This document shows, in pieces, positions 1 through 30,134 of a stretch of DNA of 59,520 nucleotides. The stretch is from assembly GCA_000934665.2 (NCBI GenBank), contig JYFJ02002309.1, forward strand, positions 1 through 59,520, in the 5' to 3' direction. Origin of the DNA: Catajapyx aquilonaris (Eukaryota). The notes below the pieces were generated by a model. That model made no database searches, was not told the DNA's origin, and saw only the letters and a list, made by a program, of their open reading frames with translations. The position numbers were made by a program, and so were the translations under genes. How positions within the stretch are numbered: the stretch's first letter is position 1; the number at the start of each line of letters is the position of its first letter.

Positions 1-1552
1 TGCTGTCAGCTCGACAATAATGTGCCTCGACTCTAGGGAAGTTGTTAATATGATCTCTAACTTTCTGTTTACGAGCTGCAGAAATTTTGTCCCTTGTTGC
101 TTTCCCTCTTCTGTCTGGGGTAGGTGTGCCTGCCAAATTCTTATTCTTGTGCACATTGTATACAGGTTTTTGACTAATTCTCAATGTCGACAGATAAAAA
201 TCCTTGCACACCTGAACTCTGTCGTTTCCAATGAAGAATGAATATGTGAAGGAAAAAATCTTCTAGATGGTCCCTCTTTCGTGGTTCTTTTTTTTTCGGA
301 GCGCTCAGTTGTCTTTAGTAAATAATGATATTTCTCATTTTGACTGAGTCCATAGTAAGCATTTCTAACGGCTTCTCGCTCATCAGGGAACACGTGTGTG
401 GCACATTTATATCTGCACAAAACTTTACAGTCTTTCACTGTTTTTACCCGCTTTTCCTGAACAAGCTTTCCCCGTTTACTGATATATTGCTTCCCAGATT
501 GGTAATTTTCATGTCTTATCTGGGCTTTCGACATGTCCGGGTGGCGCATCCGTCTCCTCGTTCTACGTCGTTGCTTCATAGGTGTTGACGGCTCGGAGTT
601 CTCGCTTTCAGATGTGCTGTATGGCACTAGGCTGAACCTGCTGGGATGCAATAATTATATTACTAATTTTATGGTAGAATTATTACAATTCAGACTATTA
701 GATTGCTATACTCTTACTTGTTCTTAATAGTGCAGTCGTCCACAGGAGGTGTGATAGATGAGCGTGGCTCACTTAAATTGACGCCTTTGTCTTCAAGCAT
801 CACTTTTGGAGGGCTGACATCATCTTGCGATGATGTCGTTGGCCTAACGTGGTTAGGAGAGTTCGGAATGAGTGCTATTATAATAACTTGAAATTAAAGC
901 TTATTGCTTATGATGATACAGAATCTACAACAACAACTTACACGTCCAAATCATCAGAACCCCCGTCATCATCACGTCCTTCCTCAACGTTTGTTGGTAC
1001 TGACGTACTTGGAGTAGTAGCAGAGAAAAGCCTGAAATTATTGCATCAGCCGTAAGGTAATGTAGGGTCTCGTGCTTCTGCAACAATAATAGGCCTAGGC
1101 CTACGGAAAACGCATGCTTACTTACCGTCTCCGGCATGGTGGAGGCCGAGCGTCACCCTCTGAGGGTGATGAATCCATCTCGTCTGAACTAGGTTGGTAT
1201 TCAGAACCAGAATCAGTCAAGTCATCACTAGAAACAGCAGCTGTCTCTGACTCTGTGGCAGCCGACATTTTTCTCCTACGGGCTAGGCCCAGGCGAGATC
1301 GTAGACGCGCTGTAATTGGCTTACGCGTAAGAGAGCAAGCTTGTCATTGGTGCCAAGATAGGACCTTGTCATTCTGACTTTATTTGGGGATGTGCAGTTA
1401 GAACTCCGGCCTTTTGATAATTTCATATTCAGTAGTGAGAAAATAGCTACCACTTCATTATCACTGAAAGATTATGTCACATAGAACCCCTGTATACCAA
1501 TAAGTCTATTTACGAAAATGTCAGATAGAACCTTGTCTTTCTGAGCCCGCGT
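1..1552 (-). mobile_element. 5' part of a Sola1-like DNA transposon; frameshifted transposase N-terminus (ORF 181-651, continues beyond window start)
   Basis: GKQYISKRGKLV..KDCKVLCRYKC..EREAVRNAYYGLSQNEKYHYL, continuing after a frameshift as VQVCKDFYLSTLRISQK, is the typical N-terminus of Sola1/DUF7869-type transposases. Intron-like upstream segments and a repeated GACAAGG motif lie near 1360 and 1535. Confidence 0.6.
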
Positions 1553-2728
1553 ATTGTTTTTCCAACAGTCACCAAAAGAAAAGATTTTTATTACCATACA
1601 TGTCTGAACCCGGAACCCATTATCTGAATGTCCTGGTCCCAGTTTTCCGGGAGGATTACCACCACTCTCCCAGCGCCCCGTAGATTTATGGCGACATGAT
1701 GTTGCGGACAACGTACCACTTCAACCCTTGTTGTACCGTGTAGTTGTATGGGTGGGAAGGTCCGTTGATGGTCCTCTTCCTCCCGGTTGAACAGGGTATA
1801 GGTGAAAGTTGGGATAATGCGGTAGGGTGGTCTTTGGATCCAGCCAAGTTGCGAAGCCCTCGGTGAAACCCATCCTCCAGCGGCTACATCTCCGGTAGAG
1901 GCATGATGAACTAGTTCGTCCGGTGTCTCCACACGTCCAGTAGCTGCTGATGTTCCAGTCCATTGTCGAGATCCCGGTGAGACCCATCCTCCAACAGCTT
2001 CATTTCCAATGGAGGCATGATGAACTGGTGTAGGTGGACGAACATCCTCGAGCGTCTGCTCAGTAGCTGATGTTGTATCCATTGTTACCTTCTTACCGAA
2101 TGCGGGCAAAACGATTCCGTCCTTATATAACATCTTGCTTCTTCCTATCATAAATACACATACTGCACCTGTTCTCTTCACTGAAGCGAATCCAACAGGT
2201 GACACATTTGTAACATGCTACTCTGAAAAAAATATATTGGATCGATAGAGTTAGAATTCCTAAATCACAATACCAGAGTTTATTCAGAATCAGAATAATC
2301 AGATGTAGATTCCCAGAGTCCCAAATCACAATTACAATACAAAATAATACGAAAACAGTGTGTGCAGAATTTCTTCTCAAGTTTTGAAGTACTTGTACAT
2401 GAACGACTGCAAGGGAGAGTGTAAAGGAAATCAAAAGTTTTATATGCGAGAAGATGGGGGAGGTATAATATAATTTGATAATTTTCACTCTCAGGCATCA
2501 TAATTATACGTTTTAAGTCGGTTATGAAGATGACACGATAAACAGACTTCAACTGAAGTATTGATGATAACAGGGAGCTGAAAATAATAAGAAAAAAACA
2601 AAGGTTCCGATCACATTTCTTTTAATTAGAAATGAGTTTTACAGCAAGAGAGCTTGTTTAGCTGAATCCTCGATTGATTTTAGCGCTTTCAGCATTTGCG
2701 GTAAGGAACGCAAGGTAAACCAACCCCC
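1552..2728 (-). repeat. ~1.18-kb near-identical duplicate of 13477-14650 (Maverick-like accessory arm: PC4 3' end, Cys/acidic-tail ORF, HHAS-repeat ORF)
   Basis: Direct base-by-base similarity. ORFs 1591-2205/2280-2552 match 13512-14036/14206-14523. The ORF has two internal repeats, VHHAS(I/T)G(N/D)xAxGGWVSP. Confidence 0.9.
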
Positions 2729-3239
2729 AGTGGTGTAAGGGCGGTGGGTTCCAGGCCACTTTGACAGGTCGGGTACTGAGCCATTGTGATTGATTGACAG
2801 GTCATTGTTTTAAGGTGATTGAATGACAGGTGAGTGACAGGCGATTGTCTTTATTTCGGTACAAGGTTGGTGACCCAAATATTGGTGCATTTTTTACACA
2901 GAGAGGCCAGCTCATCCCCAAATATGCATGCCATTATGACACCTCAAGGATTGTTGCCCTGTTCTCTTGCATCCCAAGGCTGGTGAAGGAGGTCGCATTT
3001 ACATGCACTCGAGGTTCCAGAGGTTTTGTTTGTGTCCTCCCCCCTCATTCACCCACACACAATAGGCGAGGTAGATACTTTTTAGGGCGGGAGAGGGAGG
3101 AGGCGGGCAATGGAGGGAGCAAGCTATGGAAGGCATCGGCCATCCGTCACATGCATTGTTGATATGCGTAGGTGGACCGTATACACATGCCATTGTCACC
3201 ATTGTTGTCACCACGAGAAAAACAATAGGATCGGTTGAG

Positions 3240-3909
3240 TAGAGAGCAGGGGAGTAAGGCGGTGGGTCTGGTTGAAAGGGGGGAGCAATGGGGAGTGGTT
3301 GATGTCTCACAAAACATTTTTTCAAGGTGTTGTTCGCAAGATTTCTAAATAAATCACGGTAGGCAATCATATCAAGAGAAAGCCCCTGGGCACTTCGAAG
3401 CTGATGAATCATGTGGAAAACACGTGATCCTCTATACCAGCCATCTTGAGTCAAACGAGACATGAGTGGCACCTGTTCACAAAGGTCAACGGAGGCACCA
3501 GCCAATTCACAAAGCTCTCGTTCCAGGCGAAACAGCCGAGGGGAAGAAATCTTTTTTGCTATACTCAATCATCTAAAAGGAACGATTTGATTAGCATCGG
3601 AAAATGTTTCGTGATGATGCCGCTTACCATTCCAGGTTGAATGTCTGGCTCTTCCGGCTCCTGAGTGGATTCGAGCCACGAAATTCCACTCTCAATTTCC
3701 AAACATGTCTTTTTTTGCACTCTACAAGTGCTTGCAAAGTATGGATAAGCAAAATAGTTGTATGTGTGCGCCGTTCCAGGGGGAATTAATTCAGGCGATG
3801 ATAAAATTTCATGTCGATTTTGCCACACGCCGAGCGTTTTTTCGGTTTTATATAATTTGAAACACTTATGAGGCTCTACACCAACATAAACAGTTACCTG
3901 CACAGCCAT
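3240..3909 (-). CDS. Orphan 'GVEPH/YRDLF' gene, copy 1 (element-associated, unknown function)
   Basis: MAVQVTVYVGVEPHKCFKL..GVWQNRHEIL followed by ..GWY..QLRSAQGLSLDMIAYRDLFRNLANNTLKKCF. Homologous copies lie at 6720-6872, 15821-15861 and 17503-18121. Confidence 0.6.
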
Positions 3910-3953
3910 CCCTCCAAAACTACTGAAAACTATAGTGTGCGGAGTAAGATATA

Positions 3954-5100
3954 TCAGGATAAAAAAAGGGTTGGAAACAAAAATTTACTGTCCGTGCCGG
4001 GGTGAAAAAAGTACAAGGTCATGGATGGATTATAAGTCAAATGTGATGCAAGACTCGCAAACAAATGCCCTTCGAAGGGATTTTCATTAAATAAATTTAC
4101 GTCTTTTAATGGGTCATTATATTTACATAAATAATCGTTTGTTTTTCTCAAAGTAACTCAAAAACCGGTGCACGCATCAAATAAAAAAAATAATAAGGCA
4201 ACGAACGTTCATGGAAATAATGGAAGAAATTCGCAACCATTGAATAGAGCATCAGTGACCCAATCTGTTTCACTGCTCTCATCCTCGGAGGACCAAGATT
4301 CCTCGTCAGACAATCTCCTTCCCCATCCTAATATAACTTCCCAATTAAAGGTGGGAAACTCACCTCCGAAATAATAACGGTTCACATTGAACAAGTTGGG
4401 CAACTCATCCCCCGAAAAACCTTCCACAACGTCCATAGCGGTATTTAAAAATAATTTTTTTAAATTCGGATCCATCGAAATGGTCCATGACCAAGTCGAT
4501 GGGTACCGGTGGCCAATCTATTTCGCTATGTTCAATGCTATCGTCAGAGGTAGAAGATTCCTCGTCAGACCATCTCATTATCAGTCTTGTTATATACACC
4601 CAATTTAAGTATGGAAACCTACCTTCGAAACAATATCGATTCACATTAAACAAGTTTGGCAATTTATCCCCGAAAAAGCGCTCGACAACATCCATAGTGG
4701 AATCTAAATAAAAAATGTTTTTTTAGGAAAGCACAAAAACCAAGGCAAAAAATACTTACATGAGTCCAAATAGAGGCTTCTAATTAAATAAATTCCTAAA
4801 TTCGCACCCATCGAAATGAATCTCAATGAAGTCGATGGGAACCAGAGGCCAATCTATCTCACTAAGTTCAATGCTGTCGTCATCGGAAAAAGTTTTCTCG
4901 TCAGAGTCATGACGTCCAAATGTTTTGCCGAATATAACCTCCCAATTAAAGTTTGGATATTCCCCATTAAAATAAAACCGATTCAAATTGAACAAGTAGG
5001 GTAATTCATCCCCGAAAAAAGCTCGACAACGTCCATAGTGGAATCTTAAAAAAATGGTTTTAGGGAAGCACAAAAACCAAGGCAAAAATACTTACATGAA
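3954..5100 (-). repeat. Tandemly triplicated 'NLF' orphan gene units (FxGDELPNLFN...FDGCEF)
   Basis: ORFs 4209-4475, 4405-4695 and 4780-5085 share MDVVExFxGD(E/K)LPNLFNVNRY..FPxxNW..IDWPxVPID..FDG(C/S)EF. The same 5' intron (cat|gtaagt...ag|ATTCCACTATG) recurs at ~4710, ~5050 and ~8530. Confidence 0.7.
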
Positions 5101-5270
5101 TGTGAGAAGCAGAGCTGAAGACGGCAAACTCTAGAGGGCGAATGGGCTTAAATAGCAAACGGTAAAGAAAAGAGTAGGGCTAAAACAATGTCCGGTGCTC
5201 TGTCTAGGGTTGGTAACAGGATGAGCTTGACAAGGTCAAGGTTAGGCCGTTACCACCCTAGGTATACTAC

Positions 5271-5564
5271 TTATTTCTTACCTTTGGAGGTGTTGGTGTG
5301 GCGCAGTGTGGCTTCTATCAGGCACCTTCCAATGTTATAATTTGGCACAAAACCGGCGGTAAATGGAATGCCAGATATGTGATCCCGCTTATGTAAATTT
5401 GCGTGCAAAATCTCATTATTCCAGTGTCCAGTAGGGGAACGGAAGATCCAGTGGTTTGTCTCTGCAGGGTATGTTCCTATCGTCAGGGTAGCAGCTTCCT
5501 TCGGAAATAGGACTCCATCTGCATTCTGGTAACAATGGCTGGCAATGATTACACCCGGTTCCAT
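5271..5564 (-). pseudogene. Maverick-type DEDD/DnaQ-like protein, 3'-truncated copy
   Basis: MEPGVIIASHCYQNADGVLFPKEAATL..NHWIFRSP..SGIPFTAGFVPNY fits the insect Polinton exonuclease-like family pattern (..F.PKE.A...H.LF..GI.W/F..G..PY). Homologs at 10872, 32130/35068 and 41700. Confidence 0.55.
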
Positions 5565-5745
5565 GCTGGGAGACTGTTGACCGAAAACACCCCTTCCATA
5601 GATATATGTTTGCGATTTGTGCGCACGCACTCATAAATGCTTTCTACCCGGAAAGGTTGCAGGATAGAATAATGGAACAAGTCCCTATCGAAGTCGATTT
5701 ATTGCAAACAACTGCTCTTCTGCTACTCACAATGGGGGCCGTTAA

Positions 5746-6468
5746 TCAATATTTTTGTTCACCCGGAACACGTGAAATTATAGGTAGTGGGGCCTGTATA
5801 GGGATCTTATACTCACGCTTTTTCTCTTTTTTACTCATGCTCCTGATCTTAAATTGGAGCCCAGACAGTTCCAACCACTATTCTTCGGCCTGGGACATTT
5901 CACACAGAAACTAATTGGTAGTCCTATACATGGAGCGTCGGCCCACATAAACTTGTGGGCGTGAGAGAGCATAACACAATGTTGCAGAGAGCCTGTATTT
6001 GAGGGTTGAGTTTTTCCCCATCCATGGTATTTTAAGGCCTGCTTATTTGTTTCCAACACATAGGCCCCTTCGTGTCCGATATCATATGCTCCAATGTATA
6101 AATGCGTAGGAAAATCTTCTGAAAATATAAAGTGTAAGCATCGCATACATTACAAAGCATGAGGCACTTACTTTGCACCAAATAATTTACTATTTCTCGA
6201 TGTTCATCTGCAGAGTCGATCATCGCCAAATGAGAATTCATGTTTGCACATATCTCCGAGGCTTGGAACCAGTTGGCAACATGTGTTGCAGACGTGTAAT
6301 AGCATCCCGATCCAATGCTCGTAAATGGAGATCTACACTCTTGCGCTGGAAAAAAAATGTTGAACCCCTCACCAACACAAATTGTTCGTACTTACATTTC
6401 ACGGTTTGAAGCAAGAGAAGAGCAGTTGTAAAGAGTAGCAACATTTTCGTATTGTTGGTGAACTTCAT
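5746..6468 (-). pseudogene. Secreted C-type lectin domain gene, copy 1 (spliced, frameshifted)
   Basis: Signal peptide MLLLFTTALLLLQTVKC, then C..MNSHLAMIDSADEH, LYIGAYDIGHEGAYV, WGKTQPSN..HCV..WADAPC. GT-AG intron at ~6120-6171. Confidence 0.8.
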
Positions 6469-7029
6469 TCTCGCCTTCTCCTTTATGTGCTCAGTTCACG
6501 CTTGCTTGCCCATAATCCCGGATGATTTTACGCCCACCCAAATGCAAATATGCTGCCTCGTGCAGCTGTTTTAGGATCCTATTATGCATTTGTAATACAA
6601 GGTTTTTTCCTGGCACTTGTGTCAGTAGTTGTCCCCTCCACCTGTGCCAATTTCTCTGCAATACATTGTTTGTCCTGACACAGGCATTGCTGTGCCAATT
6701 TGCATATGCGCCAATTGACCTGTAAGTGTGCGTAGTCCCAGGGGGAATTAATCCGGGCTCTGCTAGAATTTCGTGTCGATTTCTCTAAACGCCGATTGAT
6801 TTTTCGGTCTTGAATAATTTGGAACAAGTGTGAGGTTCTACACCCAAATACACGGTTACTTGCAGAGCCATGTCTCCAAACTAGGTGAAACTATGGCATG
6901 TGAAGGAAGATATATCAAAATGGGGTTGGAACTAATGAAACTACGAGGAGGAAAAAATTTCACTGACCATGACGGCGCGAGACGGAAATAGTGTGAAAAA
7001 GAGGATCTATACGCCTGATTGAAAATCGC

Positions 7030-8112
7030 AACCACTGGTAGTCGAACAATACTTCGGATTGAAGTTTCCGGCCTTTTGTTCCAGACTAACTGTCATCAGC
7101 GACTATCCTAAGCAAGTGAAACCAGACACAGGGGTGTCCAATTTACTTGTTTCGCGCCTGACTTACGCCTGACAACGTCCTACTAACAACTTTGTCACCT
7201 ACCAAAGGGACAAATGATTAGCACTGAGACACCTTAGTTCGGATTCCGTTCTCCCTCTGTACTCTCAGACCATGTGGGCCCCATTTGACCTCCACCATGT
7301 TATAAGGCTAACTGCAAACCAGTTAAGGTTTAGGGCGTAAACCGCTAGTCTTATTCAGGTAGGACCTGAGCAGGTTCCTACCCGTGCGAACCTTCGAATC
7401 TACCCACGATGGTGAGAGCTCCTTGGGAGAACAACCAAAACGGACACAGGGTTTCAGACTGTCACAGTTTATTATCGGGTAATCACATGCATACCAGTTG
7501 CAGGGTTACTCTGGTGTAGACATCTCACCCATAGCCTTCTTGTTCTGGCGTCTCGTCTGGAGATGACCCTCCTGGCTGTGGATGAAGCGCGATGATAGTC
7601 GCCTCTGGGGTTGGTTAGGACCCTGGTCGTCAGAGTCTGGCTTCTCTCGTCTTCAAACTTAGGATTACTAACAACTCTCGTACTGAGAGCCACGCTCAGA
7701 AGGAAAGCCCCCGTTCATAGCAATTCATCCGTATTTATGGATTCGAGGCCGACAGTTAACGACGTTAGAATCCTGGGGCAATCACCCTTCAGGATTCACA
7801 TGACTTTACGTACAAGTACAGGACGTGTGGTTTAGGAAAGAGTGTTTCACCATACTCAGGGTTCATACGGTACACTGACTAATTAGGGAAACCAGAATGA
7901 TGATGTCATCATTCTTATTGGGCTTCAGTGCGGTTATGACTAAAAGGTCTTAAATCCGCACTGCGTTGAAATGAGTGACTCGGCCCAGGAAGTGGTGGAG
8001 CTTATGCTACCACAAGTTCCCCAAAAATAGTGTAAACACAGTGACCTTTCAGCTTGACGTTGAAACAACGTAAAATGCCGAAAATACCATGAATTTAGCC
8101 ATATTCGTAACA
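7030..8112 (-). mobile_element. 5' LTR (~7298-8112) plus PBS and leader of a Gypsy-like retrotransposon, truncated
   Basis: On the minus strand TGTTAC...ATAACA is immediately followed by PBS-like TGGTGGAGG (7297-7289). Internal AATAAA at ~7470. It is preceded by ATAT, the target seen for other LTRs here, and it interrupts an NLF-GVEPH cassette. Confidence 0.55.
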
Positions 8113-8546
8113 ATATGCCCAATGTGGTGCAATGTCCTCAAATTAAAAAAAAAAAGCAAATAATGTCCCTCAACGGGATTTTCATTAAATAGATTAACCA
8201 GATCATCCTCACGCAAGACGCTAAATTCACATAAATAATCATCCTCCTCTTGACAATCGTTATCGATATAGAAGTATCTCCACAAACCAGAGCACGCATC
8301 TATGTCTAAATAATGATATGGCAGAGGCCTCTCATTAAACAAATTTCTAAATTCGCAACCATCGAATTGGGCCTCGATGACGTCGGAGGGAATCCGTCGC
8401 CAATCAATTCCGTCATTTTCAACTCGGTCGTCGTACCAAGTTTCCAACCTCCATCCTGACATAGGTTCATGATCAAATAAGTTTGGAAATTCGTCACCGA
8501 AAAAGCGCTCAACAGGGTCATAGTGGAATCTAAAAAAAAAAAGCAC
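8113..8546 (-). CDS. 'NLF' orphan gene copy, cut by an LTR
   Basis: VERFFGDEFPNLFD..IDWRRIPSDVIEAQFDGCEFRNLFNERPLP..GLWRY..LVNLFNENPVEGHY. Promoter and 5' intron are similar to 5040-5190. Confidence 0.65.
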
Positions 8547-9518
8547 AAAAACCCAAGCAAAAAATACTTACATGCCTGTGAGAAGCAGAGCTGAAGAGGG
8601 CAAACTCTAGAGGGTGAATGAGAATAAATAGCAAACGGCAAAGAAAAGAGTGGAGGAAAGAACAATATCCCGGATAGCTTCCAAAAAAATTTACAATAAG
8701 CGCAAGTGCATGTGCTAAGACAAACAATGTATATCGCGTACGTCAATGGTATAGGCCTCGCGGGGTGACACTTGGAGACAAAGGAAAACGTTGCATTGGG
8801 TGCACTTTGTACGTGAAAAAAATTGCATCCTTTTTTCTTGCATCTTGGCACATTACTCCACGCTCAAACTTCACCACCTCTGGAAAGTGCTTGCCCAGAA
8901 GAAATTCCCTTTGATTTGTAGAAAATGCTATTGTTTGATAGAGTTCGTCGTCAAAGTATTTGCTGAAATATGTGTAGGCTTCTCCGATGTTTTGAGCAAA
9001 CCCCACAACAACATCTTGAGGCCCAGCAAACACCGCTGGGTTAAAGCTGATGGCATATGACACATTTTCAATGAAATTAATCACATATGACTGACGAATA
9101 ATCTTACGGACCTTTGTGCTGCTCTCCCTCAATATCCGAATCATCACCGTCAATAGAGCCAGGATAGCATCGGGATCCAAAGTTCCTCCCATAACCTGGA
9201 TAAACAAGATTGGCAAATCACGCGAGCATGATTCGATGACTCTTTCTCATTTGACAACTAGTCCTCTCTGTGCCATCAGAAGTTGGATAACAATGCACTG
9301 ACCTCACTCGGGCACGCTCGACAGAGAGCACGCCTGTGCCTGGAAATTGCTGCCAGCATTTTTAAACAACAACAATAACTTGTGTTCTGGCCAGGTTGCC
9401 CCCTTCCTTTATTTCGCGACAATAACTTTGTTCAGTTTAAATGATGCATTCCTTGGCTTATGATGAGCCCGCTTTGACGGGAATATTACCACTTAATAAT
9501 ACGAAAACCTCTGACAAA

Positions 9519-10175: not shown

Positions 10176-10280
10176 AGGCTCAGCCGCCCCCTCCAGGTTG
10201 TCTTCCATCAGCATAGGCCGCAATAACTGAGGCCCCTCCAGGCCGTCTGTCCTCTCGCCCTCCAGGTCGCTCGGGTCCAG

Positions 10281-10560
10281 CTACTTCTCCCTCGGAATGA
10301 AATGAGAGTCATAACGGGTCCAATTATGGAAAAATACAGGCACCTTATCGTCCAATTGATATGCCACATTACATTTCTGATGAGCCACGCCCCTGTCTTC
10401 GCCGGTAACATGACAATGATCTTTGACTATGACGTCATCAGGTAGGAATGGCTCCTCACAAATGTGGCAGGTCGAATTGGCCACTGTGTCATATGCCGGT
10501 CTTTTTCTAAAGGCTTGTGCTTGCCTTTTATTATAAAACACTTCTATATGATTTCTAATA
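10281..10560 (-). pseudogene. pPolB fragment (endonuclease VII zinc domain to exonuclease II motif)
   Basis: [45 protein letters not shown] matches 39530-39710. Confidence 0.85.
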
Positions 10561-20980: not shown

Positions 20981-21629
20981 TTAGTCATCGCTGTCATCGG
21001 TTGTTTCATCCCTTGCATGGCTTACTTTAAGATTCTCAGAAAAGCTGTGGTATGAAGTGGGAATCGTTCGTGACCTGCAAAGTCTGAGAAGGTCCTCTTT
21101 CTTCGCTTTGCTAATGGTTAGTGGGCCTGAATCATTTAACTTAGTCAGTTCAACTTCAGCTACGTTGTTACAGGAAGTCCTCTGTCGAGATCCTACTTTG
21201 CTGTAAACACACAATCGTTTGAAATCAGCTTGGTCTAACTCTTCTTTATAAAAAACCATTCCTGGTTCCTCCTTTCTAACCTGAATCCATTTGATCCGAA
21301 GCCATGGCACAGTACTATGGTCTGTCGCTGTAGTCTTATTACGCATAACAGTAGCGCTGAATTTCTTAAAATCTATGAAATCGGATAAGTCCATTTCCTT
21401 CACGTCATACATTGGGGAAGTACTCCTAGCAGTTCTGGCAACGTGATACCACCCTTGTGGTGAGTATATCGGTACAGATTTTCCTCTTTCCTCAATGGCT
21501 GAGTGGACACTATCACACTCCATCTCTGAATGGCCTGACTCCATAAATTTCTGGTTTATCACTTTGATAGGTAAGCATGTAACGGCCCGCAGGAACATGG
21601 CTGTATTGATGGAATTGCGATTTTGTACC
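20981..21629 (-). pseudogene. Sola1-like transposase C-terminal catalytic part
   Basis: QNRN...KFMESGHSEMECDSVHSAIE..IYSPQGW..V.EM..DF.DFK..W.RIKWI..ISKAKKEDLL.LC..IP..YH.F. Confidence 0.75.
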
Positions 21630-22214
21630 TGATGACAGGTAAATTTTCCACAGCAGCAATCATGGTGTTAACTTCATCAATCTTCATCTCACATGCAGTT
21701 AAGTCTGAAAAGCATTGTGTTAAAATAATGTCACAAAAAATGGTATCCAGTACTCACCAATAATCTTGGGCTTCTTTGCTTCATCCGGGTTCAATTGGTT
21801 CTTGGCCTTAACCTTCAACCCTTCCACACCGAATAACTTATTCCCAGATGTAGGGTGGGCAAAATCAAAAGATTGGAAGTTTGATACCATCTTAGGAGTT
21901 GTGTTCGACAGGCTCTGGGAGAACTGAGTTGTGCTCGACTGGCTGGTTGGAATAATCCAGTGCTCCTAATGTGTCCTTCTTATATCTACTAGCCCAAACC
22001 GTTTTCCACAGGAAGTATTGTACAGATGGGAGAGTAACGGATTTAACGGATATTATCAGGAAGTAACATCCAGATGGGAGAGTAACAAAATTATTTGCAG
22101 ATGGTAGAGTAACGAACTTATCAACAGGTGGGAAACTTCATATGACCAACGGACAGAACTTAAAAGAAGTGTAGACTGTAGAGTGAGGAATCAACTCATT
22201 CTGGTTGTAAAATG
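21630..22214 (-). repeat. Duplicate of 14753-15331 (PC4-like gene promoter plus exon 1), fused to the Sola fragment
   Basis: Near-identical sequence, including three CAGATGG(G/T)AGAGT(A/T)AC repeats. Confidence 0.9.
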
Positions 22215-22356
22215 TATCTGTGCCAGTTTGTGGTCATAATTCGAGGACAGAATACGCCTTTCAATTACATCTCTACGATGCTCACATTTGTCGTATATGT
22301 GGGGAAAAAAACAAATATAGTGTACAGGGCCCAGCATAAAGGCGCTACGGGGCCAT

Positions 22357-22600
22357 ATGGGATGGAAGGACTGTCCAGAGGTCGTGGAACAGTTCTGTCC
22401 GAGATTTTGGAGACGGAGGGCACTGTCCCTCTCCTCCTTCACAAAACTGAAGGAGCTTAGTCTCACGGACTCCACCGGGGTGTCGTATGTCATATTGAGG
22501 AACATTGGAGATCACCTACATTCCCTGAAAACTTTAATTCTTAAAAGATGCCAAAACATAACAGACGGTGGCCTGCCTTCACGACATCAGTTGACGACAA
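22357..22600 (+). pseudogene. Leucine-rich repeat (F-box/LRR, AMN1-type) fragment
   Basis: FTKLKELSLTDSTGVSYVILRNIGDHLHSLKTLILKRCQNITDGGL fits LxxLxLxxCxxITDxGL. Confidence 0.5.
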
Positions 22601-23454
22601 TACGAGAAGACCCATGGTCTTGGTTGCATAATAATTGATATTCAAACCGTAAGGTTAACGATTTTCATTGTACAAGCCTGACTTCATAATGACTGGGAAT
22701 TAACCTAAGATTAGACCGTACCCCAAATAACAATAAAACATATCGAACGTCCTCCTAAGTTGGGTTTTACTGAATGAGTTATTGGCAATATCGGCTTATC
22801 ATGTAGTCATACTGAATGGTCATATGCATATATTAAAGGCAATAAAAAATGTACATATATGCGTGATATGTCAGTCCTGGGTTACTTGACAGGAACTGAA
22901 TCATTGACACCTTCATACTTTGCTCGGTCCAACGTGGACTTAACCTGAGTTGGAGTTCAGTTTGGAATCGTGCTGAAGTGGCAGGGTTGGAGGATTTCAT
23001 CCGTGCATCAGCGGGGTCATCTGTGAGGCCTGTTGGGGTCTATAAAGACGGTTCCACTCGTCTGTTGTGCTTGTGTCCCCCTCTTAATGGCACGTTCTCA
23101 GGCTTCACCCTTCCACGGCGTTGCTCATTCAGCAACCCTGGAATGGCTGCACAGTCCAAAGACTAAGGCGTGGTCGCCTTTGTTCACCCTCATAGTGTTT
23201 CTGCAACCACTCTTAAGGCTATGATTAATGTTGTGGAGATTTGACACGATGGTGGTCGTGCTGCATGACTATATGCTGGCAGAAAATCTGCTGACAGGGT
23301 GACGCCTTGCATCCAATTTAAGTCCCAGGGGCACGGTTTCAACCACCATAGTGACCTGTCGTGTCAAACTTCCAAGCAGCTGGTTATACATGTACATTGG
23401 AGATTAAACATTTGGACAAAGGGACATTACATACACTGAGGCCAAGCGGGCGTA

Positions 23455-24365
23455 TTATTGCTTTTTATATGGTGAATACTTTTGGGGTGGTTTTCTGTCC
23501 CGTCCACTTCGTCGTGGTTCGGCACGACAGTCTACTGGGTCAGCTACAGCTGGACGCCTTTTGGGAGGCACAGGAGGAATGTCCTTTTCGGGACTGGATC
23601 GAGGCGACGGGGTTTCCGGAGCCGATTCTGGTACTGGCTCATCTGATTCAAATGCCTCAAATGGTGGTGGACCTGTATGTCCTCTTATGGAGGGGAGAAT
23701 TATGGATTCGTCCGGGTCAAACCTAATGTCCGAACGGACAGTCCGTTTACTCTCTGCTCGAGTGACTCTTTTCGGACGTGATTCCTTGGAATCTGGGATA
23801 TTTGCACTTTCATCTGGCACCGGAGCCTGGTCCCAGACAGGTTCTGGGAACACTTGTCTCTCAACGTGCTTTTTCAGACGATTCACGTTGACTACCTGTG
23901 TGGCTTTGCTCCCCGTAAGTGGACGAATCTCCATGACAACCGGGCCTAATAATCTCACGATACGGTACGGCCCTGTCCACAGTCTACTGAGCTTCTTGAC
24001 TCTATTCTTTTTCAATTGTGGGACAAAAAGCCAGACAACGTCGCCTACTTTGAATCCACGGTCTCTTGCCTTTCTGTCATAGTACTTCTTGTTTTGATTC
24101 TGCCCTGCCTCCAAGTGCTCTTTGGTTCTTTGGAATATTTCTGGCACTTTCTCAGCTATTGTTTGCTTGTAATCATCATATGCTCGATAATTGGGCCCTG
24201 TGGGCTCAAGATTTGCTGCCAATGGCAGATCCATATCCCTGGCTAGCAATAGGTAGTGGGGGGTCTCTTTTGTAGGCGAATGGACGGCACTACGTATCGA
24301 CATAAGTACAAGGGGCAACAAAACATCCCAATCAGATTGTTCCTTTGACACCTGCATGGACAAAA
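23455..24365 (-). pseudogene. Ty3/Gypsy integrase C-terminal half (GPY/F module)
   Basis: DWDVLLPLVLMSIRSAVHSPTKETP..KKYYDRKAR..FKVGDVVWL..KKLSRLWTGPYRIV..VNVNRLKK..PRRSGRDRKPP. Confidence 0.9.
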
Positions 24366-24429
24366 TTCTGGAACAATGATACACAAATGTTAGAACAATG
24401 ATTTATTTAGACATAATTGAGGCAATGAT

Positions 24430-24580: not shown

Positions 24581-24596
24581 GATTTATTTACATGGT

Positions 24597-27086
24597 TCAC
24601 ACATTTTTATAATGTCCAATAGCTCGGGTCATCTTCCCATCAAGTAGAATATGGCGCTTGTCATCAAACGCATTTAGAGCAATTTTCTTAGAAGTTACAG
24701 TATGTACATTGTGATCCGTACTCCTAATGGCAGTCATTGAGCAATATTCCGTGGTTTGTTGCTCAAGAACTTTTTTATATACATCATGCGTCAGATGTGA
24801 GCGACTCTTTTTCCCAACTCCTTTTGCGGTGGCCTTGTGGGTCATGTCCACCATCTCCAAAGAATAACATTTTGCTCGCAATCCGACAAAAGACTTAATT
24901 ATTTCTCCACTCATTTCATCCTTAAATTTACCAGGGACTTTCTTATTGGTTACATCATGGAGGCGGTGGGTGGGGGGAAATTCTGACAGACCAAAGAGAT
25001 GTTTGTGTTTTAACATATCCTCATAGACATCACTTCCAGTCACATGAATCAAAAGGCTGTCGGTATCGGTGAAACACAATTCGCACTTCTCACCGTACAA
25101 AGGAAGCAAGTGATTATAAAAAATTTATACATAACCCTCTTGGCCGCCTCCAGAATGCAAAATCCAATTGCAATGGGTTGGTTCAGCACCACATTAATCT
25201 TCTGCTTACTCACCTGAACCAAATCCTCAGCCAAAATTTTCATATTTTTAAAACTAGGTTTCTTCATCACTTTTTTGGCACGCTTCCCACTCGTAATTAA
25301 CTCCAAATTAACATATTTCCGGACTGATTGTAACATTTTCCCATAAATTGAATTGTTGGCTAATTTGAATAGACTTTTTTCAAAGTCATTAGTGGCAGCC
25401 TTCCTCAAACTTGAATTCAGGTCAATATATTTTTTAACACAGGTGCTTGCTCAAATTGAAGAATTCTGTGGACTTTAGAAAGTTGCAGACCATGTTGAAC
25501 ATACATCTGCAAGTTTCTATAGTCCACAACATAGTTTTCTTTATCAAGTAAATTCAGAATCAATTTCTCATTAAATTTGGCATGCGGAAGTGATCTCTGA
25601 AAGTCTGATAGATGCTCATCCTTCACACACATTTTCTCGGGGGCCATTGGGAAATGAGAATGTCATGCAGTTCTCTGGGATATTTCAAGTCAACTTCCAA
25701 AATATATCCAATAGGACTATCATGCGGTGTTGCCATCACCTCATAAATTTTTTTAGGTGAAACCCATTGATATCCTACGGGCATGGATAGTGCCATTACA
25801 AATCCATATAAATTGTTCGCATCGAGATATAATAAAAAGGACTCGGGTCTGGATGGATCATACAAATCACCCATGTACCGATTATTGGCTTCAGCATACC
25901 GCTTGGCCACCATGGCAACACCGCCTCTCAAGCGTCTTTCAATGAAAATATGAGCCTCTACATCTGTCAGAAGACCCAATTTCACCCCAGTCTTTTTTAA
26001 ACAAGCATCCAGACTCAAACCAGGAAGAGAAATATAATGGCAAGGGTCCAAATCGTAATTCAGCTTACTAACACCTCTGAATTGTTGAAATATGTCACCC
26101 AACAATAGAACGTCTCTTTTCAGATAATGGTCGTGAAACTGACCTAAATTCTGACATTGAGTCACCTGCCAGACCTTTTTGGCAAAAGAATAATCCTCAT
26201 CAGTAATTCCCTGACTGGTTAGAGAGGGGAAAAAACCTTTCTTGGGGGGCAGGCACGTTTCCTCAAATTTTGCAAAGGAATCCGTATATTCATAACAATA
26301 TATTCCTTTTTGCCTAGTACAGTCCAATACAGCCGGATCAGTTATGACCTGGCTAGTGACAGGTAGGTTCAAGCCACTTGCAACTAAATTTTTGACTAGA
26401 GTGTTCAAACTAGTACTTAGAAAATTGAATGAATCTAGAAAAACAATATTATTTAGAGTTAAGCAAGTGATTTGCTCGCTGTTTCTAGCTATTAAATGGA
26501 TCTTATCTCCTTTCCTACCTGCCAAAGCCTTCACAATGAAATGTGAGTCATCTCACCCACATCTGAACCTTGGAAAATGGTTTGCATGTCACTATTAAAA
26601 TATGCCTCTACTTCACTCTCAATTCCTGCCATGGTGGTTGTCAGGTAGACTCGGGTCCTGATGGCCGGAAAATCACGAAACTGTAGATGCCACAATGCAG
26701 GTAGATCCAGATGATCAAATACTTCCTCCACAGTATTGAAGTATGATAGGTCGCCAGACACATACTGACGACAGATGTTGTTGAAGGCAGCATTTTTTAT
26801 GGAATTTATCCTGTAAAAACATTTGTATTAGTCACCATGCTTTCACAACAATTAGGATTACTTACAGTTGTTGGAGCTGGGTGATGTATCATACGGTGTT
26901 CCGCCAATGTCTGTGCATCTCTCATAAATCCATTGCAGATATTGCATCGATGATCTGTACTTATATGCCTGAATAACCTTTGCTCTGACCTAAAAATAAT
27001 ATGTATCAATACATATCAATATGATGTTATCTTATTACTCACTGGGAGCGGAAATCGCAGGTGTTGCAGCGGTGGGTTGACATCAT
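24597..27086 (-). pseudogene. Protein-primed family B DNA polymerase (Maverick pPolB) with spliced N-terminal C2H2 fingers; internally deleted and frameshifted
   Basis: FLDSFNFL, YLDANNLYG (motif A), KLANNSIYGK (B), FTDTDSL (C), GKFKDE, FVGLRAKCYS, FDDKR. Fingers CNTC/CNICNGF..H..H carry GT-AG introns. The EndoVII region is deleted near 26560. Confidence 0.92.
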
Positions 27087-27289: not shown

Positions 27290-27665
27290 TTAAACATCAT
27301 AAGTGAAATAATATCTCATTATTCTATTAACCTCGCAGTCGTGAATAAAAAACCAGTCATCAAAGAATTCCAAATTGTTGACAAAATAATATCTTACTGA
27401 ATATGGATATGCTAGTAACTCTAATGTTATTGCTAAATTCATTTCTTCATAGTGTGCTGTACATCTATTATGAAAATAAAACCAATCAATTGCATACTGA
27501 TCTAGTCTACAATTATACACCTCCCAAATTCGTAGGTGCCAGTTTCGAAGTGGTGTGGTGTCAAATAAATTGATGAGTTCATCACCAACGAACCCATCCA
27601 CAACATCAACAAGGGGGTTGAATAGATTTGCCAATTCATGTCCATTAAACTCCTCTATTACATCT
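27290..27665 (-). CDS. Divergent 'NLF' family gene upstream of pPolB
   Basis: FNGHELANLFNPLVDVVDGFVGDELINLFDTTPL. Confidence 0.5.
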
Positions 27666-28935
27666 ACATTAAAATAAATATTAATTAATTTTATACATAT
27701 GACATTTCAACACTACTTATCTTAATTGTTAGGTCAGCCTTATATTCAACCCTATGTCACCACTTGTCTTAATTACTTGAGACTCACACACACTCTTCTT
27801 ATTTACACTGTTAATTAATCCCTTTTTTTGGTTTTAAATTTTTTATTACCTTCCAATACATCAAGCTGCTGAAGGGCTCTCTTGGATATTCTCAACTCCA
27901 AACTGATAGAGAAGTCCATAATCAATTATGTGTTACTCATAATGAAAGACAGTATTACCTTCACTAAGCAGATCCTATGATCACCTGATATTAGTCTGCT
28001 CACATCAGAATTTATTGTTCTCAGAACAATCCTCTCTTGGAGCTCATGCTCCAAGTGTGAGAGCTCCTCTAAATCTCTAAAAATTTCACTCCATTCATAT
28101 CTCCTGATATGAGCAATTTGATCTAATAACCATTCTGGGTCAGCATTATCCATGAGGGCCCACATATGTTCCACTCTACTCATAGATCTCTGCGATAGAT
28201 GTTTGAGTGATACATAATGTGAAATTAAGGTTTAACATACAACTTACATTCTCCTCAGCTGCTTGTGTGTCTCCCTGCCTTCTATCTCCACGACCTGTCA
28301 TCTGAGGGGTCTTAAGCAAGAGTTGCCTAACCCACGTGAACCTTGTTTCAATATATTTGCATTTGAAAGTTTGTCAGGTTGTCTTACTGCTGTGCTACTA
28401 CTGACTGTCGCCAAACTCGATGGGTGGATGCAATGAAATTTAGTGAAGCAATAGCAGCAGAAAAGGAGACAAAAACGTTACACAATCCGATAGGAGAGCA
28501 CTTGACACAATGACATGTAGCTCTTTAGGCTACTCTGGCTAAATTATAATGTGAGCCTATGTGTCATAGGCTACTCTGGCTCACAAACCTTTAGATACAG
28601 ATTGACGATTGTAGGCTACTATTAATAACCTTCAAAGTGAGCCTCTCTTATTATTTACTTTACCGTGTAGTAGGTAGAAATTCATAGAATAATTGTGCGC
28701 AACTTTTATTACCTTTTGAGCAAGTTTTCATCCGTATACACAATATCATGAATAATACCCATAAAAGAAAAGGTAAGTAGTTAATCAATGACTTGTTGAA
28801 ATTTTCAACATGTGACAGCAAAGTAGTAGCCATATTGTTGTCCTAAACTGTTATTTTCCACTGTTCATGGCCAATATTGATCCTGGACCCTGTCTTCATC
28901 TTATAATGTGACGCATCGAGCAAGTTCAACACACT

Positions 28936-29250
28936 TCACTGATCCACTTCCTTTTCTTGCTCTCCAATAGAACTGCCAACACTACACTCGTCACCATCAA
29001 GCTGGGCAGAATCCCCTTTCAAATCCCAGTAAAACTGGTGATGTACTGGCGGCACAAACTTCAGTAGATCCTGCAGGTCTTTCAGTTTAGCACTTTGCAC
29101 TCGCCTACCCTCAGGGTAGAGTTTCTCAAGTGTGTCTGGTGTGCGTACTCTCTTTCGAGTGAAATCCACTCTGTAGAATGCAACGTCTTCGTTGGTGGTG
29201 TACTTGTACAGCATAATATTGGGCTCTGAACTGCTGAACCTAATCCTACC
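28936..29250 (-). pseudogene. Sola1-like transposase extreme C-terminus
   Basis: IRFSSSEPNIMLYKY..LEKLYPEGRRVQSAKLKDLQDLLKFVPPVHHQFY, homologous to the tail of 20981-21598. Confidence 0.6.
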
Positions 29251-30134
29251 TGTGGTATCCAACGTGTCTTTTTGTGCGATTGAGGTGGCCGCCAGAGGCT
29301 CTAATAAGTCTTCTGGTCCCTGGGTGTTGGTTTCTGTCGACAAACTTTCTTTCTTGATTCCCTGACCCGTCTTCATTTTTCGTGGTCTATCGGGGTCTTG
29401 TAATGCCTTAAACTCTGTTGTTAGCCTCTTTAAACGCCTACTTGCCCGTAGGGGTTTATTCTCTACCACTGCGTCAGAGTCTGATTCGATTTACCTCTCA
29501 CTGTCGGACTTATTGGACTCCTCCGACTCGTCCGATATCTCTAGTATTGTTCGATTCAAAACTTTCTGGGGTTCCACTGAATATCTAATGACTGATTCCT
29601 CTGGATCCATTCACTCGATCTTCATCCTTTGGATTGTGCTCTGATCATTCACGCCAGGCTGATTTTTCGACTGCCCTTAGCCTCCACCATATCAGATTAT
29701 TGCCAAATTCGACAACAAATTAGGGTAACGTAGCACATGTCAAGCTGTACTGAAATCTTGCAGTCGAGTCAGCCCGAGGCGGGAATAAGATCAGATACAA
29801 GACACAATCCTTTATCCCATCAAGTTTATTAACACAAACATTGGTACAACGAACAAGTCAGGTGAAACGAGTGATACAGGATAAACCACTTAATACTTAC
29901 ACCACCCCATGGTGTGATCTGTTGCACAAGCGATGACCAGTCAAGGCGAATAGGACACTGTTGCTCTTCTCACTCTCTCTCCCGTCTCTCGATCATCTTT
30001 TTTCAGCGCTCGTGCCATATTTATACCCCATAACATCCCGGAAGTTTAGTCAGTGCGTCAGCTATTTTTGTGGCTCATCCTTGAGTCCTCAAAATTACTG
30101 CTAAAACGTCGGTTTTACATCACATGATTTGACA
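29250..30134 (-). mobile_element. 5' LTR, PBS and start of gag of an LTR retrotransposon (truncated)
   Basis: LTR end ...AATCTGATA followed by PBS TGGTGGAGG (29689). TATAAAT and AATAAA inside the LTR; ATG at ~29610 opens a low-complexity gag-like N-terminus. The upstream LTR boundary is uncertain. Confidence 0.45.

Follow-up and report, generated by a model that had tools for sequence, protein, structure and literature searches.

A heap of genes and gene remnants that mostly read one way could mark a small-RNA defence locus; equally, it could result from a small number of multi-gene elements arrayed head to tail. Positions 1–30134 of the window (the whole 59,520-nt stretch of DNA analysed here) pose this question, having been described in an earlier note as a ~30-kb, almost entirely minus-strand patchwork of transposon and virus fragments. 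The minus-strand excess of coding remnants is genuine: 20 of 23 orientable pieces lie on the minus strand (16.9 kb versus 2.7 kb on the plus strand, or 86 % of oriented bases; Table 1), GC skew is negative in 12 of the 15 2-kb bins of 1–30 kb, and ORFs of at least 80 aa number 59 on the minus and 35 on the plus strand (7587 versus 3990 aa). Pfam matched nine of the 125 stop-to-stop ORFs of at least 70 aa starting in 1–30134 on both strands, eight of them on the minus strand; the ninth is the weakly matching leucine-rich-repeat (LRR) ORF, already set apart in that note as an exception, whilst the apparently plus-strand P1 pair had been missed as one. Nor does the bias end at 30134, since it runs on to ~38 kb (15 minus versus 6 plus ORFs in 30135–38000); beyond that (38001–59520) there are 41 minus and 32 plus ORFs, a ratio not significantly different from that of 1–30134 (Fisher p 0.43).

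Table 1. Features of the window, with positions, strand and supporting evidence (., no strand assigned).
Positions	Strand	Feature	Evidence or remark
2–540	-	Sola-like DDE transposase-family protein, N-terminal third (aa ~82–306)	tblastn
1552–2728	+	Repeat P1 copy a, probable 5′ LTR	97.5 % identity to 13477–14650
3002–5193	-	Cassette 1	Three NLF repeat units, GVEPH/RVQKK ORF, GWY..AYRDLF ORF
5280–6493	-	ORF X and C-type lectin gene	76.5 % nt identity to 42213–43401
6494–8670	-	Cassette 2	GVEPH part 6494–6931 with in-frame stop; NLF units 8052–8670
8746–9246	-	Open 167-aa frame	ORF list
9520–10220	-	zf-block copy a, C2H2-like finger	~80 % nt identity to 19788–20351
10284–10571	-	Endonuclease VII domain and pPolB exonuclease start	Pfam Endonuclease_7 1.8e-7
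10875–11078	-	ORF X-like piece	blastp to 5352–5555 (43 %) and 42325–42453
11603–12160	-	Fibre-like ORF	Pfam Phage_T7_tail 5.8e-6, 26.5 bits (cut-off 25.2)
~12210–13310	-	Possible adenain-like cysteine protease remnant, frameshifted	Motifs in read-through translation
13477–14650	+	Repeat P1 copy b	No PBS after copy b; no target-site duplication
14746–15331	.	Repeat P2 copy a	97.1 % identity to 21623–22215
15363–16550	-	Cassette 3	NLF 15992–16324; GVEPH remnant 15817–15879 with stop
16586–17390	-	Two open frames, coiled-coil look by eye	ORF list
17506–18740	-	Cassette 4	NLF, GVEPH (in-frame stop), RVQKK, GWY..AYRDLF
18871–19290	-	ORF Y	Paralogous to 37288–37692 and 43394–43756
~19200–19550	.	High-copy repeat	Bin 19009–19675 depth 660–1708 versus baseline 21–37
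19788–20404	-	zf-block copy b	Pfam zf-C2H2 20153–20488 (weak); likeness to copy a
21017–21661	-	Sola-like C-terminal third (aa ~437–692)	Best relative 3e-59, 53 % identity
21623–22215	.	Repeat P2 copy b	Partner of 14746–15331
22321–22635	+	About two FBXL-type leucine-rich repeats	Pfam weak; PDB FBXL2 7.5e-7
23458–24402	-	Gypsy/Ty3-type integrase, C-terminal part, 5′-truncated	Pfam Integrase_p58_C 2.5e-9, SH3_Tf2-1
24600–26994	-	Polinton-type pPolB copy alpha and upstream zinc-finger piece	Pfam; split into several frames
27293–27706	-	Cassette 5	NLF units only
28939–29490	-	Third Sola-like copy, C-terminal end	tblastn P0006 aa 611–692, 35 %, 2.8e-6
31925–37692	-, but pPolB piece +	Third Maverick-like copy, outside 1–30134	Paralogy, repeat search
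31925–32122	+	pPolB N-terminal piece of this copy	
32267–32446 and 34985–35080		ORF X of this copy	Interrupted by LTR element
32488–34987		LTR element inside ORF X	LTRs 99.2 %, target-site duplication GGTG
35240–35835		Lectin of this copy	
37288–37692		ORF Y of this copy	
38280–45417	both, converging	Best-preserved Maverick-like copy, outside 1–30134	Pfam, paralogy
38280–41670	+	Zinc finger, Endonuclease VII and pPolB of best-preserved copy	
41703–45417	-	ORF X, lectin, ORF Y and two further ORFs of best-preserved copy	

The significance of the bias depends on the grouping chosen: the binomial p is 0.0005 for single pieces, 0.057 when these are merged into blocks (11/14 on minus) and 0.34 when they are merged into elements (7/10 on minus). 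The pieces are not independent, since the repeats are all direct and two collinear units recur. In a sensitive self-blastn run 30 of 33 HSPs were direct, in agreement with the local duplicates reported before, and so were all 19 listed HSPs of at least 80 bp; the three inverted HSPs are two palindromes and the match of pPolB copy alpha to the pPolB at 38–41 kb. The inverted piece formerly placed at 18660–18935 was not confirmed: the sole inverted match there is an exact run of 19 nt, next to a weak one of 42 nt.

The window polymerase is of Polinton type: it shares 44–55 % identity with pPolB from a viral contig, L001, whose other genes include an rve integrase and an A32-like ATPase. Both minus-strand pPolB pieces of the earlier note were recovered by Pfam: that at 10284–10571, cut off downstream, shares 51–81 % aa identity with plus-strand 39533–39717 and 55 % with L001, whilst copy alpha (DNA_pol_B_2 at 25052–25450 and 25626–26552) shares 42–50 % with plus-strand 38337–41664 and 49 % with L001. 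A lectin gene and a fibre-like ORF are likewise present on the minus strand, the former with Lectin_C matches at 5838–6149 and 6035–6391 (weak) and a partner ORF (42637–43275) matching at 3e-11, the latter with a Phage_T7_tail match in which no single stretch exceeds the threshold and with no PDB relative found. Of the claimed protease there remain His, Asp and Cys motifs, which we take to be protease motifs; Pfam did not match it. The paralogy of ORF Y at 18871–19290 extends by blastp to 42 % over 77 aa and 50 % over 26 aa, and the zf-block copies have diverged near neutrally (dN/dS 0.74, dS 0.32).

In both better-preserved copies (31.9–37.7 and 38.3–45.4 kb) pPolB opposes lectin, ORF X and ORF Y; in L001, a canonical Polinton contig, it opposes integrase and ATPase. 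The order ORF Y, lectin, ORF X is read on the minus strand at 43756→42177 and 37692→32267, and recurs partially as lectin with ORF X at 6493→5280 and as ORF Y at 19290→18871, so that the four occurrences of this arm in the window, whole or partial, all lie on the minus strand.

A six-frame search of the whole window bore out the NLF/GVEPH cassettes, returning 10 NLF-type and 4 GVEPH motif matches, all on the minus strand and all below 30 kb. In cassette 1 the GVEPH/RVQKK ORF (3568–3984) is intact across 139 aa, next to the GWY..AYRDLF ORF at 3002–3568; the GVEPH and NLF parts of cassette 2 stand ~1.1 kb apart, and cassette 3 is flanked by direct 186-bp P3 copies (15363–15548 and 16365–16550, 97.8 %). 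Collinear minus/minus protein matches (GWY, RVQKK, GVEPH, NLF, zf-block) tie 3302–10220 to 17533–20404, which form two units (~10.2→3.0 kb and 20.4→17.5 kb) of a zf-block then an NLF/GVEPH/GWY cassette. The window holds no intact copy from which the native gene order of the NLF-type element could be read. Nearby cassettes are more similar (1 and 2, 74 % aa in GVEPH and 80 % nt; 3 and 4, 58–62 % aa) than cassettes of different units (50–59 % aa). The four comparisons yielding a value gave dN/dS of 0.18–0.31 (0.20–0.31 for cassette 1 versus 4) with dS at or near saturation; for GWY of cassettes 1 and 4 and NLF of cassettes 2 and 4, dS was not computable. The cassettes are genuine protein-coding genes without relatives outside this genome: neither the protein collections searched nor the viral contigs gave a match.

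Five co-directional cassettes, with neighbours most alike, purifying selection between copies, one frame kept open over 139 aa and no counterpart in the viral contigs, could suggest a tandem minus-strand family of host genes, most of them pseudogenes today, that set the common direction and among which Maverick-like and transposon pieces were inserted. We consider this reading improbable: absence from every protein collection searched is unusual for host genes, the GVEPH part is interrupted by in-frame stops in three cases out of four, and the cassettes occupy accessory-gene places of Maverick-like arms, adjoining ORF Y (18.7 kb), surrounding the lectin (5–8.7 kb) and lying upstream of pPolB (27.3 kb).

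The classic transposon pieces, with three Sola-like fragments and one Gypsy fragment on the minus strand and two P1 LTR copies on the plus strand, do not by themselves show a clear strand bias. The Gypsy integrase was confirmed by Pfam. The fragments formerly called Sola1 do match one animal protein family of ~650–700 aa (tblastn P0001, P0006, P0016), but no tool returned that name, their relatives carrying DUF7869 only; the first continues past the left window edge, the second is 5′-truncated at the P2b junction, and the matched part of the third is 29017–29244 (aa ~611–692). The 1.2-kb P1 pair looks like a plus-strand LTR, an orientation derived from one PBS-like motif, TGGTGTAAG, on the plus strand at 2731, just after copy a; this motif is also found immediately behind the 5′ LTRs at 49487 and 55980. 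The plus strand of P1 contains no AATAAA, and copy b, for which depth was measured, stands at ~2–5x baseline k-mer depth. The three minus-strand LTRs proposed earlier were not confirmed: none of the ~97 % repeat pairs has a target-site duplication, TG..CA ends are likewise missing from pairs 2 and 3, and the P1 motif lies on the plus strand. The proposed SINE, for which neither a tRNA-like gene nor an Rfam match was found, is possibly the high-copy stretch at ~19.2–19.55 kb.

The abrupt joins are real in short-read contigs. Contigs from four DNA runs of one sample, which may be the source of the window assembly, bridge 3315–6444, 6432–7252, 7802–8800, 15519–16235, 16521–18201, 18172–19214 and 22186–23000 with no differences; an eighth stretch, 20213–21653, is bridged without difference in X1 only (X2–X4, 1–8 other letters and 2–14 gaps). 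No joints were reported in the contigs of these runs. Most of 3–23 kb lies at single-copy k-mer depth, which points to old, diverged remnants. Contig loose ends occur at 8730 and 9233–9236, near the 167-aa frame, beside which bin 9004–9670 reaches 129–187x depth; this frame has no usable match in Pfam, PDB or Atlas, and the two frames at 16586–17390 have none in Pfam.

The plus-strand LRR piece is either a stray fragment or an exon. As an exon it would accord with the region lying in an intron of a plus-strand host gene, or in the read-through zone downstream of such a gene, and having been purged of sense insertions and left with antisense ones. We regard this as very improbable: each stretch matching FBXL2 is weak and below significance, no longer relative was found, and no other plus-strand host-gene domain is present among the 125 ORFs scanned.

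Our preferred reading, held with about even confidence, is of a nest of Maverick-like elements that has decayed and whose strand bias is mainly structural. Several partial elements of Polinton/Maverick type (the protein-primed polymerase lineage) would have decayed together, mixed with Sola-like DNA transposon fragments, one Gypsy element and low-copy LTRs, and the minus excess would stem chiefly from a handful of multi-gene blocks, belonging to one element family and arranged in direct order, rather than from many independent insertions. The divergence of the cassettes under purifying selection before decay suggests that the units derive from different lineages of that family. Given pieces whose identity, strands, direct arrangement and single-copy state are as described, we infer for their head-to-tail origin that the units most likely became neighbours through integration beside a resident copy or recombination with it; the region would afterwards have undergone deletions, small tandem duplications and a small number of transposon insertions. 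As a unit the region most likely does nothing.

Several observations argue against such a nest. Simple head-to-tail copies of the better-preserved architecture would be expected to carry pPolB on the plus strand, yet the pieces at 10284–10571 and 24600–26994 share the strand of lectin, ORF X and ORF Y. The four non-Maverick coding fragments also lie on the minus strand, and the plus orientation of P1 hangs on a single motif. Divergence of the units under selection implies, moreover, separate arrivals rather than duplicates of dead DNA, which restores some independence to the pieces.

The flipped pPolB, which leaves every recognisable gene antisense to the plus strand, would suit the uni-strand piRNA cluster proposed earlier. 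A long plus-strand precursor, beginning left of the window or within it, would give rise to piRNAs antisense to Maverick-type, Sola-like and Gypsy genes, and antisense-lying pieces would be retained. The share of minus-strand pieces and bases, the concurring GC skew and ORF content, the reach of the bias to ~38 kb and the real junctions are consistent with this proposal, as are fragments that are old, single-copy and archive-like, on which small RNAs could map uniquely. We nonetheless think it rather unlikely. P1, the youngest multi-copy repeat in the region, is apparently sense, and the young LTR elements lie outside 1–30134, two of the three on the plus strand; poly(A) signals are not depleted on the plus strand (AATAAA 24 versus 24, ATTAAA 20 versus 6), a weak point; and the statistics suffer from non-independent pieces. 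Pfam found no RNA-virus or other non-retroviral EVE in the ORFs of 1–30134. The RNA-virus fragment of the earlier note was not recovered among the 125 ORFs or 115 minus-strand ORFs of 40–69 aa, and four G[DS]D motifs below 31 kb, read by eye, lack an RdRp-like context. A graveyard could at the same time be a piRNA source.

Clusters of this kind are known, among them flam-like loci (accessible part of PMC10643416) and mosquito core clusters, the latter enriched for antisense nrEVEs according to the accessible part of bioRxiv 10.1101/2022.08.22.504762. Flamenco-type clusters are rich in Gypsy/LTR elements, whereas 1–30134 is not. As far as the accessible part of PMC10643416 describes them, flam-like clusters owe their strand bias to Gypsy elements, of which there is a single fragment here, and span 227–1085 kb, compared with a visible biased span of ~38 kb, open at its left edge, in this window.

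Coding remnants in the first 30 kb of this repeat-rich, animal-type window (59.5 kb, one N) lie predominantly on the minus strand: 20 of the 23 oriented pieces in 1-30134 are on it, and by the part coordinates minus-strand pieces cover 16.9 kb and plus-strand pieces 2.7 kb, with 10.6 kb given no strand (86 % of oriented bases on minus). This bias is real; its significance is wholly set by what is taken as one independent event, with binomial p values of 0.0005 when pieces are counted (20/23), 0.057 for blocks (11/14) and 0.34 for elements (7/10). The pieces are not independent, given their direct repeats and collinear units. Chance, together with any reading outside the four considered here, has in our judgement a small probability.

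ORFs of at least 80 aa number 59 on minus and 35 on plus in 1-30134 (binomial p 0.017), 15 and 6 in 30135-38000 (p 0.078), and 41 and 32 in 38001-59520 (p 0.35), the first and last of these intervals not differing significantly (Fisher p 0.43). Of the 15 2-kb bins that make up the first 30 kb, 12 have a negative GC skew; summed along the sequence, the skew goes on falling until ~36 kb. Together, ORF counts and GC skew therefore place the end of the biased domain near 38 kb rather than at 30134; the minus-strand bias described in the earlier note stands, whilst its right-hand limit does not, and on the left the domain runs as far as the window extends. Neither CpG o/e nor the asymmetry of poly(A) signals tells the competing readings apart; the plus strand is not depleted in these signals. 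We regard it as very improbable that a plus-strand gene has an intron or its read-through zone here.

Pfam analysis of the 125 stop-to-stop ORFs of at least 70 aa that start in 1-30134 (both strands) gave matches for nine, eight of which are on minus (see the table of features); a longer relative of the lone plus-strand match, a leucine-rich-repeat piece, was sought and none was found. The lectin, fibre-like, Gypsy integrase and protein-primed family-B polymerase (pPolB) pieces that had been reported on the minus strand were all recovered there, the fibre-like one (Phage_T7_tail) being barely over the cut-off and the lectin weak. ORF 20984-21667 matches unnamed animal proteins of ~650-700 aa (best E 3e-59, 53 % identity), and tblastn resolved three minus-strand fragments of this one protein family. 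These are the pieces previously called Sola1, a name that stays provisional, as their relatives bear DUF7869 only. At 12210-13310 (minus), His/Asp/Cys-type motifs are visible by eye, which we take to be a protease remnant and a candidate for an adenain-like cysteine protease; Pfam gave no match on the read-through translation of 12201-13500 (minus), so that the protease assigned to ~12.2-13.3 kb is seen at the level of motifs and not of a domain match. ORF 8746-9246 gave only weak matches to kinesin light chain in the PDB (E 0.13 or worse) and sub-threshold helical-repeat matches in the Atlas.

Coding features of the window, with strand and basis of assignment
Feature	Position	Strand	Basis
Sola-like fragment, aa ~82-306, runs off window	2-540	minus	tblastn
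Orphan cassette	3002-5193	minus	
Lectin_C, two weak matches	5838-6391	minus	Pfam
Orphan cassette	6494-8670	minus	
Endonuclease_7	10284-10571	minus	Pfam
Phage_T7_tail	11603-12160	minus	Pfam, barely over cut-off
Orphan cassette	15817-16324	minus	
Orphan cassette	17506-18740	minus	
zf-C2H2, weak	20153-20488	minus	Pfam
Sola-like fragment, aa ~437-692	21017-21661	minus	tblastn
Leucine-rich-repeat ORF	22321-22635	plus	Pfam
Gypsy-type integrase C-terminus	23458-24402	minus	Pfam
DNA_pol_B_2, two matches	25052-26552	minus	Pfam
Orphan cassette	27293-27706	minus	
Sola-like fragment, aa ~611-692	29017-29244	minus	tblastn
Zinc finger + Endonuclease VII + pPolB gene	38280-41670	plus	
DNA_pol_B_2	39628-41130	plus	
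ORF X	42177-42630	minus	
C-type lectin	42637-43275	minus	3e-11
ORF Y	43394-43756	minus	

Three further pieces of the earlier description did not turn up. No RNA-virus family was matched among the 125 ORFs of at least 70 aa or 115 minus-strand ORFs of 40-69 aa (Pfam; the 153 plus-strand ORFs of 40-69 aa lay outside the scan), and the four G[DS]D motifs lack on our reading a polymerase context. Nor was a SINE detected: the whole window contains 0 tRNA genes and 0 Rfam families, with no Rfam match at the gathering score in the window or at E<=1 in 18600-20200. For the supposed inverted piece at 18660-18935, inverted similarity is limited to an exact stretch of 19 nt and a weak one of 42 nt beside it. 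The bin at 19009-19675 has a contig k-mer depth of 660-1708 against a baseline of 21-37, its high-copy part, placed from contig differences at ~19.2-19.55 kb, being GC-rich with reiterated CATGTCGCC-like words; this repeat may be what was taken for a SINE.

The best-preserved virus-like copy lies outside the region, at 38.3-45.4 kb, where a plus-strand gene encoding a zinc finger, Endonuclease VII and pPolB converges on a minus-strand arm of ORF X, a C-type lectin, ORF Y (ORFs X and Y being the genes that flank the lectin) and two further ORFs. The copy at 31.9-37.7 kb is laid out in this way too, but has lost an internal segment. Its ORF X holds an LTR element (32488-34987; 2.5 kb, LTRs 99.2 % identical, target-site duplication GGTG), judged to be on minus by a PBS-like TGGCGC and without recognisable genes. 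The pPolB of the window is 44-55 % identical to that of a Maverick/Polinton contig, L001 (IMG/VR IMGVR_UViG_638275880_000022), in which a zinc finger, EndoVII and pPolB gene (1712-5106) opposes genes for an A32-like ATPase and an rve integrase; L001 additionally carries a PLA2-like gene. In both 38280-41670 and L001 the polymerase gene has at its N-terminus a zinc finger and an Endonuclease VII domain, ahead of pPolB. L001 resembles the 38-45 kb copy in this gene and in its convergence on other genes, and differs in being without the lectin, ORF X, ORF Y and the NLF/GVEPH/GWY cassettes; every copy in the window is broken.

Of the window's 269 ORFs of at least 70 aa, 254 were scanned with Pfam and gave no rve integrase, the other 15 lying within the 49.9-52.3 kb LTR element, and tblastx of the rve-bearing L001 against the window gave matches confined to the pPolB region. 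There was no Pfam match to an A32/FtsK packaging ATPase or to a jelly-roll capsid (for capsids a weak test, as Pfam covers them poorly), the L001 ATPase had no tblastx match in the window, and of three inverted HSPs in the window none flanks a copy as long terminal inverted repeats would. Because integrase, ATPase and terminal inverted repeats were not detected in the window, we name the copies Maverick-like rather than Mavericks.

The first 30 kb hold five minus-strand cassettes of orphan ORFs named by their motifs, in the order NLF-repeat units, GVEPH/RVQKK ORF and GWY..AYRDLF ORF. Six-frame translation of the whole window gave ten NLF and four GVEPH motifs, all on minus, as had been reported, with none on plus, and all below 30 kb. 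The dN/dS values (0.18-0.31 in the four comparisons giving a value, dS near or at saturation; two others returned no dS) indicate that the cassettes are real protein-coding genes under purifying selection between copies, and one GVEPH frame remains open (139 aa). A tandem host gene family amid TE debris would also consist of selected genes; we think this improbable. For the NLF ORF (8052-8567), a search of 5.8 billion clustered proteins gave no credible relative (none of 94-301 aa), the Atlas no usable match and IMG/VR viral contigs nothing. The GVEPH ORF (3568-3984) likewise has nothing in IMG/VR viral contigs; its four matches among 1.84 billion representatives (E 3e-5 to 1e-4) are all repetitive Ig/fn3, proline-rich or zinc-finger proteins, and were taken as spurious. 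The cassettes are probably hitherto undescribed accessory cargo of a Maverick-like lineage.

Repeats within the window are overwhelmingly direct, with 19 of 19 HSPs of at least 80 bp, and 30 of 33 in a more sensitive run of the window against itself, in this orientation. At the protein level 3302-10220 is collinear with 17533-20404 (GWY, RVQKK, GVEPH, NLF and a finger-bearing block, at 9520-10220 and 19788-20404), and neighbouring cassettes resemble each other more than those of different units do. The finger-bearing block is nearly neutral (dN/dS 0.74, dS 0.32); the idea that the two units are neutral local duplicates is weakened by the cassette dN/dS values. Lectin and ORF X recur at 6493->5280, where they are 76.5 % identical in nucleotides to the 42-kb copy; a further ORF Y lies at 19290->18871.

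Three pairs of ~97 % repeats, P1 (1552-2728 and 13477-14650), P2 (14746-15331 and 21623-22215) and P3 (15363-15548 and 16365-16550), are without target-site duplications, P2 and P3 also lacking TG..CA ends. The PBS-like TGGTGTAAG stands two bases beyond the first P1 copy on the plus strand; it also stands immediately behind the 5' LTRs of the two plus-strand LTR elements at 49.3 and 55.5 kb, and occurs only four times in the entire window, both strands included. P1 is thus, on its sequence features, probably a plus-strand LTR, and the earlier list of exceptions is incomplete in omitting it. The two P1 copies were also considered as the LTR pair of one 13-kb element and rejected, since a target-site duplication is lacking, as are a PPT ahead of the second copy and a PBS behind it. 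At 29904-30134 (minus) there is a possible short LTR, with TG at 30134, CA near 29912 and the PBS-like TGGTGTAAG at 29904, which may account for the limit previously set at 30134.

Outside the region, the plus-strand LTR element at 49282-52491 is very young (205-bp LTRs 100 % identical, target-site duplication CTAT, 60 % GC, PBS-like TGGTGTCAGGG). Its one open 911-aa frame contains a gag-type aspartyl protease, and the absence of RT and integrase makes it non-autonomous. A small plus-strand LTR element at 55532-58815 (LTRs ~95.8-98 % identical) has the PBS-like motif of the 49-kb element, and an 8-bp palindrome, TATCGATA, adjoins both its ends.

Runs sharing sequence with 13001-23000 comprised four DNA runs (X1-X4, one sample, possibly the assembly's own) and one near-empty run under the same species label; the four hold 78-86 % of the sampled words of this interval. 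Their contigs match the window with 0 differences at 3315-6444, 6432-7252, 7802-8800, 15519-16235, 16521-18201, 18172-19214 (which crosses the supposed inverted piece) and 22186-23000, and report no joints; contig 20213-21653 is free of differences in X1, whereas X2-X4 show 1-8 other letters and 2-14 gaps. A second haplotype-like version of 20733-21142 (substitutions, small indels) occurs in X3, X4 and partly X2, X1 being as the window; since all four runs share one sample, allelic variation or a close paralogue is the probable source. Between 3 and 23 kb, k-mer depth (k=31) mostly stays at the baseline for single-copy sequence (~21-37), with multi-copy exceptions at 9004-9670, 13006-15006 and 19009-19675 (by far the strongest) and zero cover at 11672-12338 in X1-X3. 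From contigs and depth it follows that the patchwork is no obvious assembly chimera and that most pieces are old and unique; within the stretches listed, the abrupt junctions noted before are bridged by short-read contigs of one sample.

We favour, at about an even balance of belief, the reading of 1-30134 as a decayed nest of co-oriented Maverick-like elements, with a mainly structural bias. Much of the bias can be structural because a Maverick-like arm carries several genes in one direction, because four such arms, all in direct order, are spread over the window, and because the cassettes multiply locally. Two observations stand against it: the pPolB pieces at 10.3 and 24.6-27.0 kb share the strand of genes that face pPolB from the other strand in each of the two better-preserved copies (in L001, too, pPolB opposes integrase and ATPase), and the non-Maverick coding fragments, four in number, all lie on minus as well. 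The reading of the earlier note, a putative uni-strand piRNA cluster, we consider rather unlikely. A flamenco-type cluster is disfavoured by the single Gypsy fragment, by youngest repeats on the plus strand (P1) or outside the region and, as weak evidence, by undepleted plus-strand poly(A) signals; a mosquito-type cluster is disfavoured by the lack of any RNA-virus EVE among the ORFs scanned. Its boldest form appears unlikelier still: a putative piRNA source in a non-model animal that would archive Polinton/Maverick-type DNA-virus genes gene by gene in antisense, pPolB flipped from its native opposing orientation, as an RNA-guided memory directed at virus-like DNA elements and not at retroviruses or RNA viruses.

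Were the piRNA reading true, the region would be a flamenco-like archive made mostly of Maverick/Polinton genes, and antisense 'genomic memory' would take in DNA virus-like elements besides retroelements and RNA-virus EVEs. Should the structural reading hold, the region is an ordinary transposon and viral graveyard, and co-orientation overstates the evidence where fragments come from few multi-gene elements in direct order. Under any reading, the NLF/GVEPH/GWY cassettes form an accessory set of protein-coding genes under selection, with relatives absent from very large collections, and merit attention as candidates for new Maverick cargo.

According to van Lopik et al. (2023, PMC10643416), flam-like clusters span 227-1085 kb, are LTR-enriched, have a strand bias driven only by Gypsy and, like Drosophila flamenco, are validated by one-strand piRNAs. 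The region shares with them its TE-fragment richness, coding remnants mostly on one strand and old, degraded pieces; it differs in a visible bias of ~38 kb, in content that is mainly Polinton-type and orphan genes, and in showing no LTR/Gypsy enrichment (one Gypsy integrase fragment in 125 ORFs, Pfam). Core piRNA clusters of mosquitoes are described (bioRxiv 10.1101/2022.08.22.504762; PMC5497376) as enriched in antisense non-retroviral EVEs. The likeness to these lies in virus-derived fragments in one orientation amid transposon debris; theirs are of RNA-virus origin with piRNA production shown, whereas those here are of DNA (pPolB/Polinton) type and recognised from sequence. Heterochromatic 'graveyards' of nested or tandem transposons are marked by truncated pieces that meet abruptly, by direct duplications at short range and by old single-copy fragments. 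The window has all of these, although its co-orientation (86 % of oriented bases) is above what a random nest would lead one to expect.
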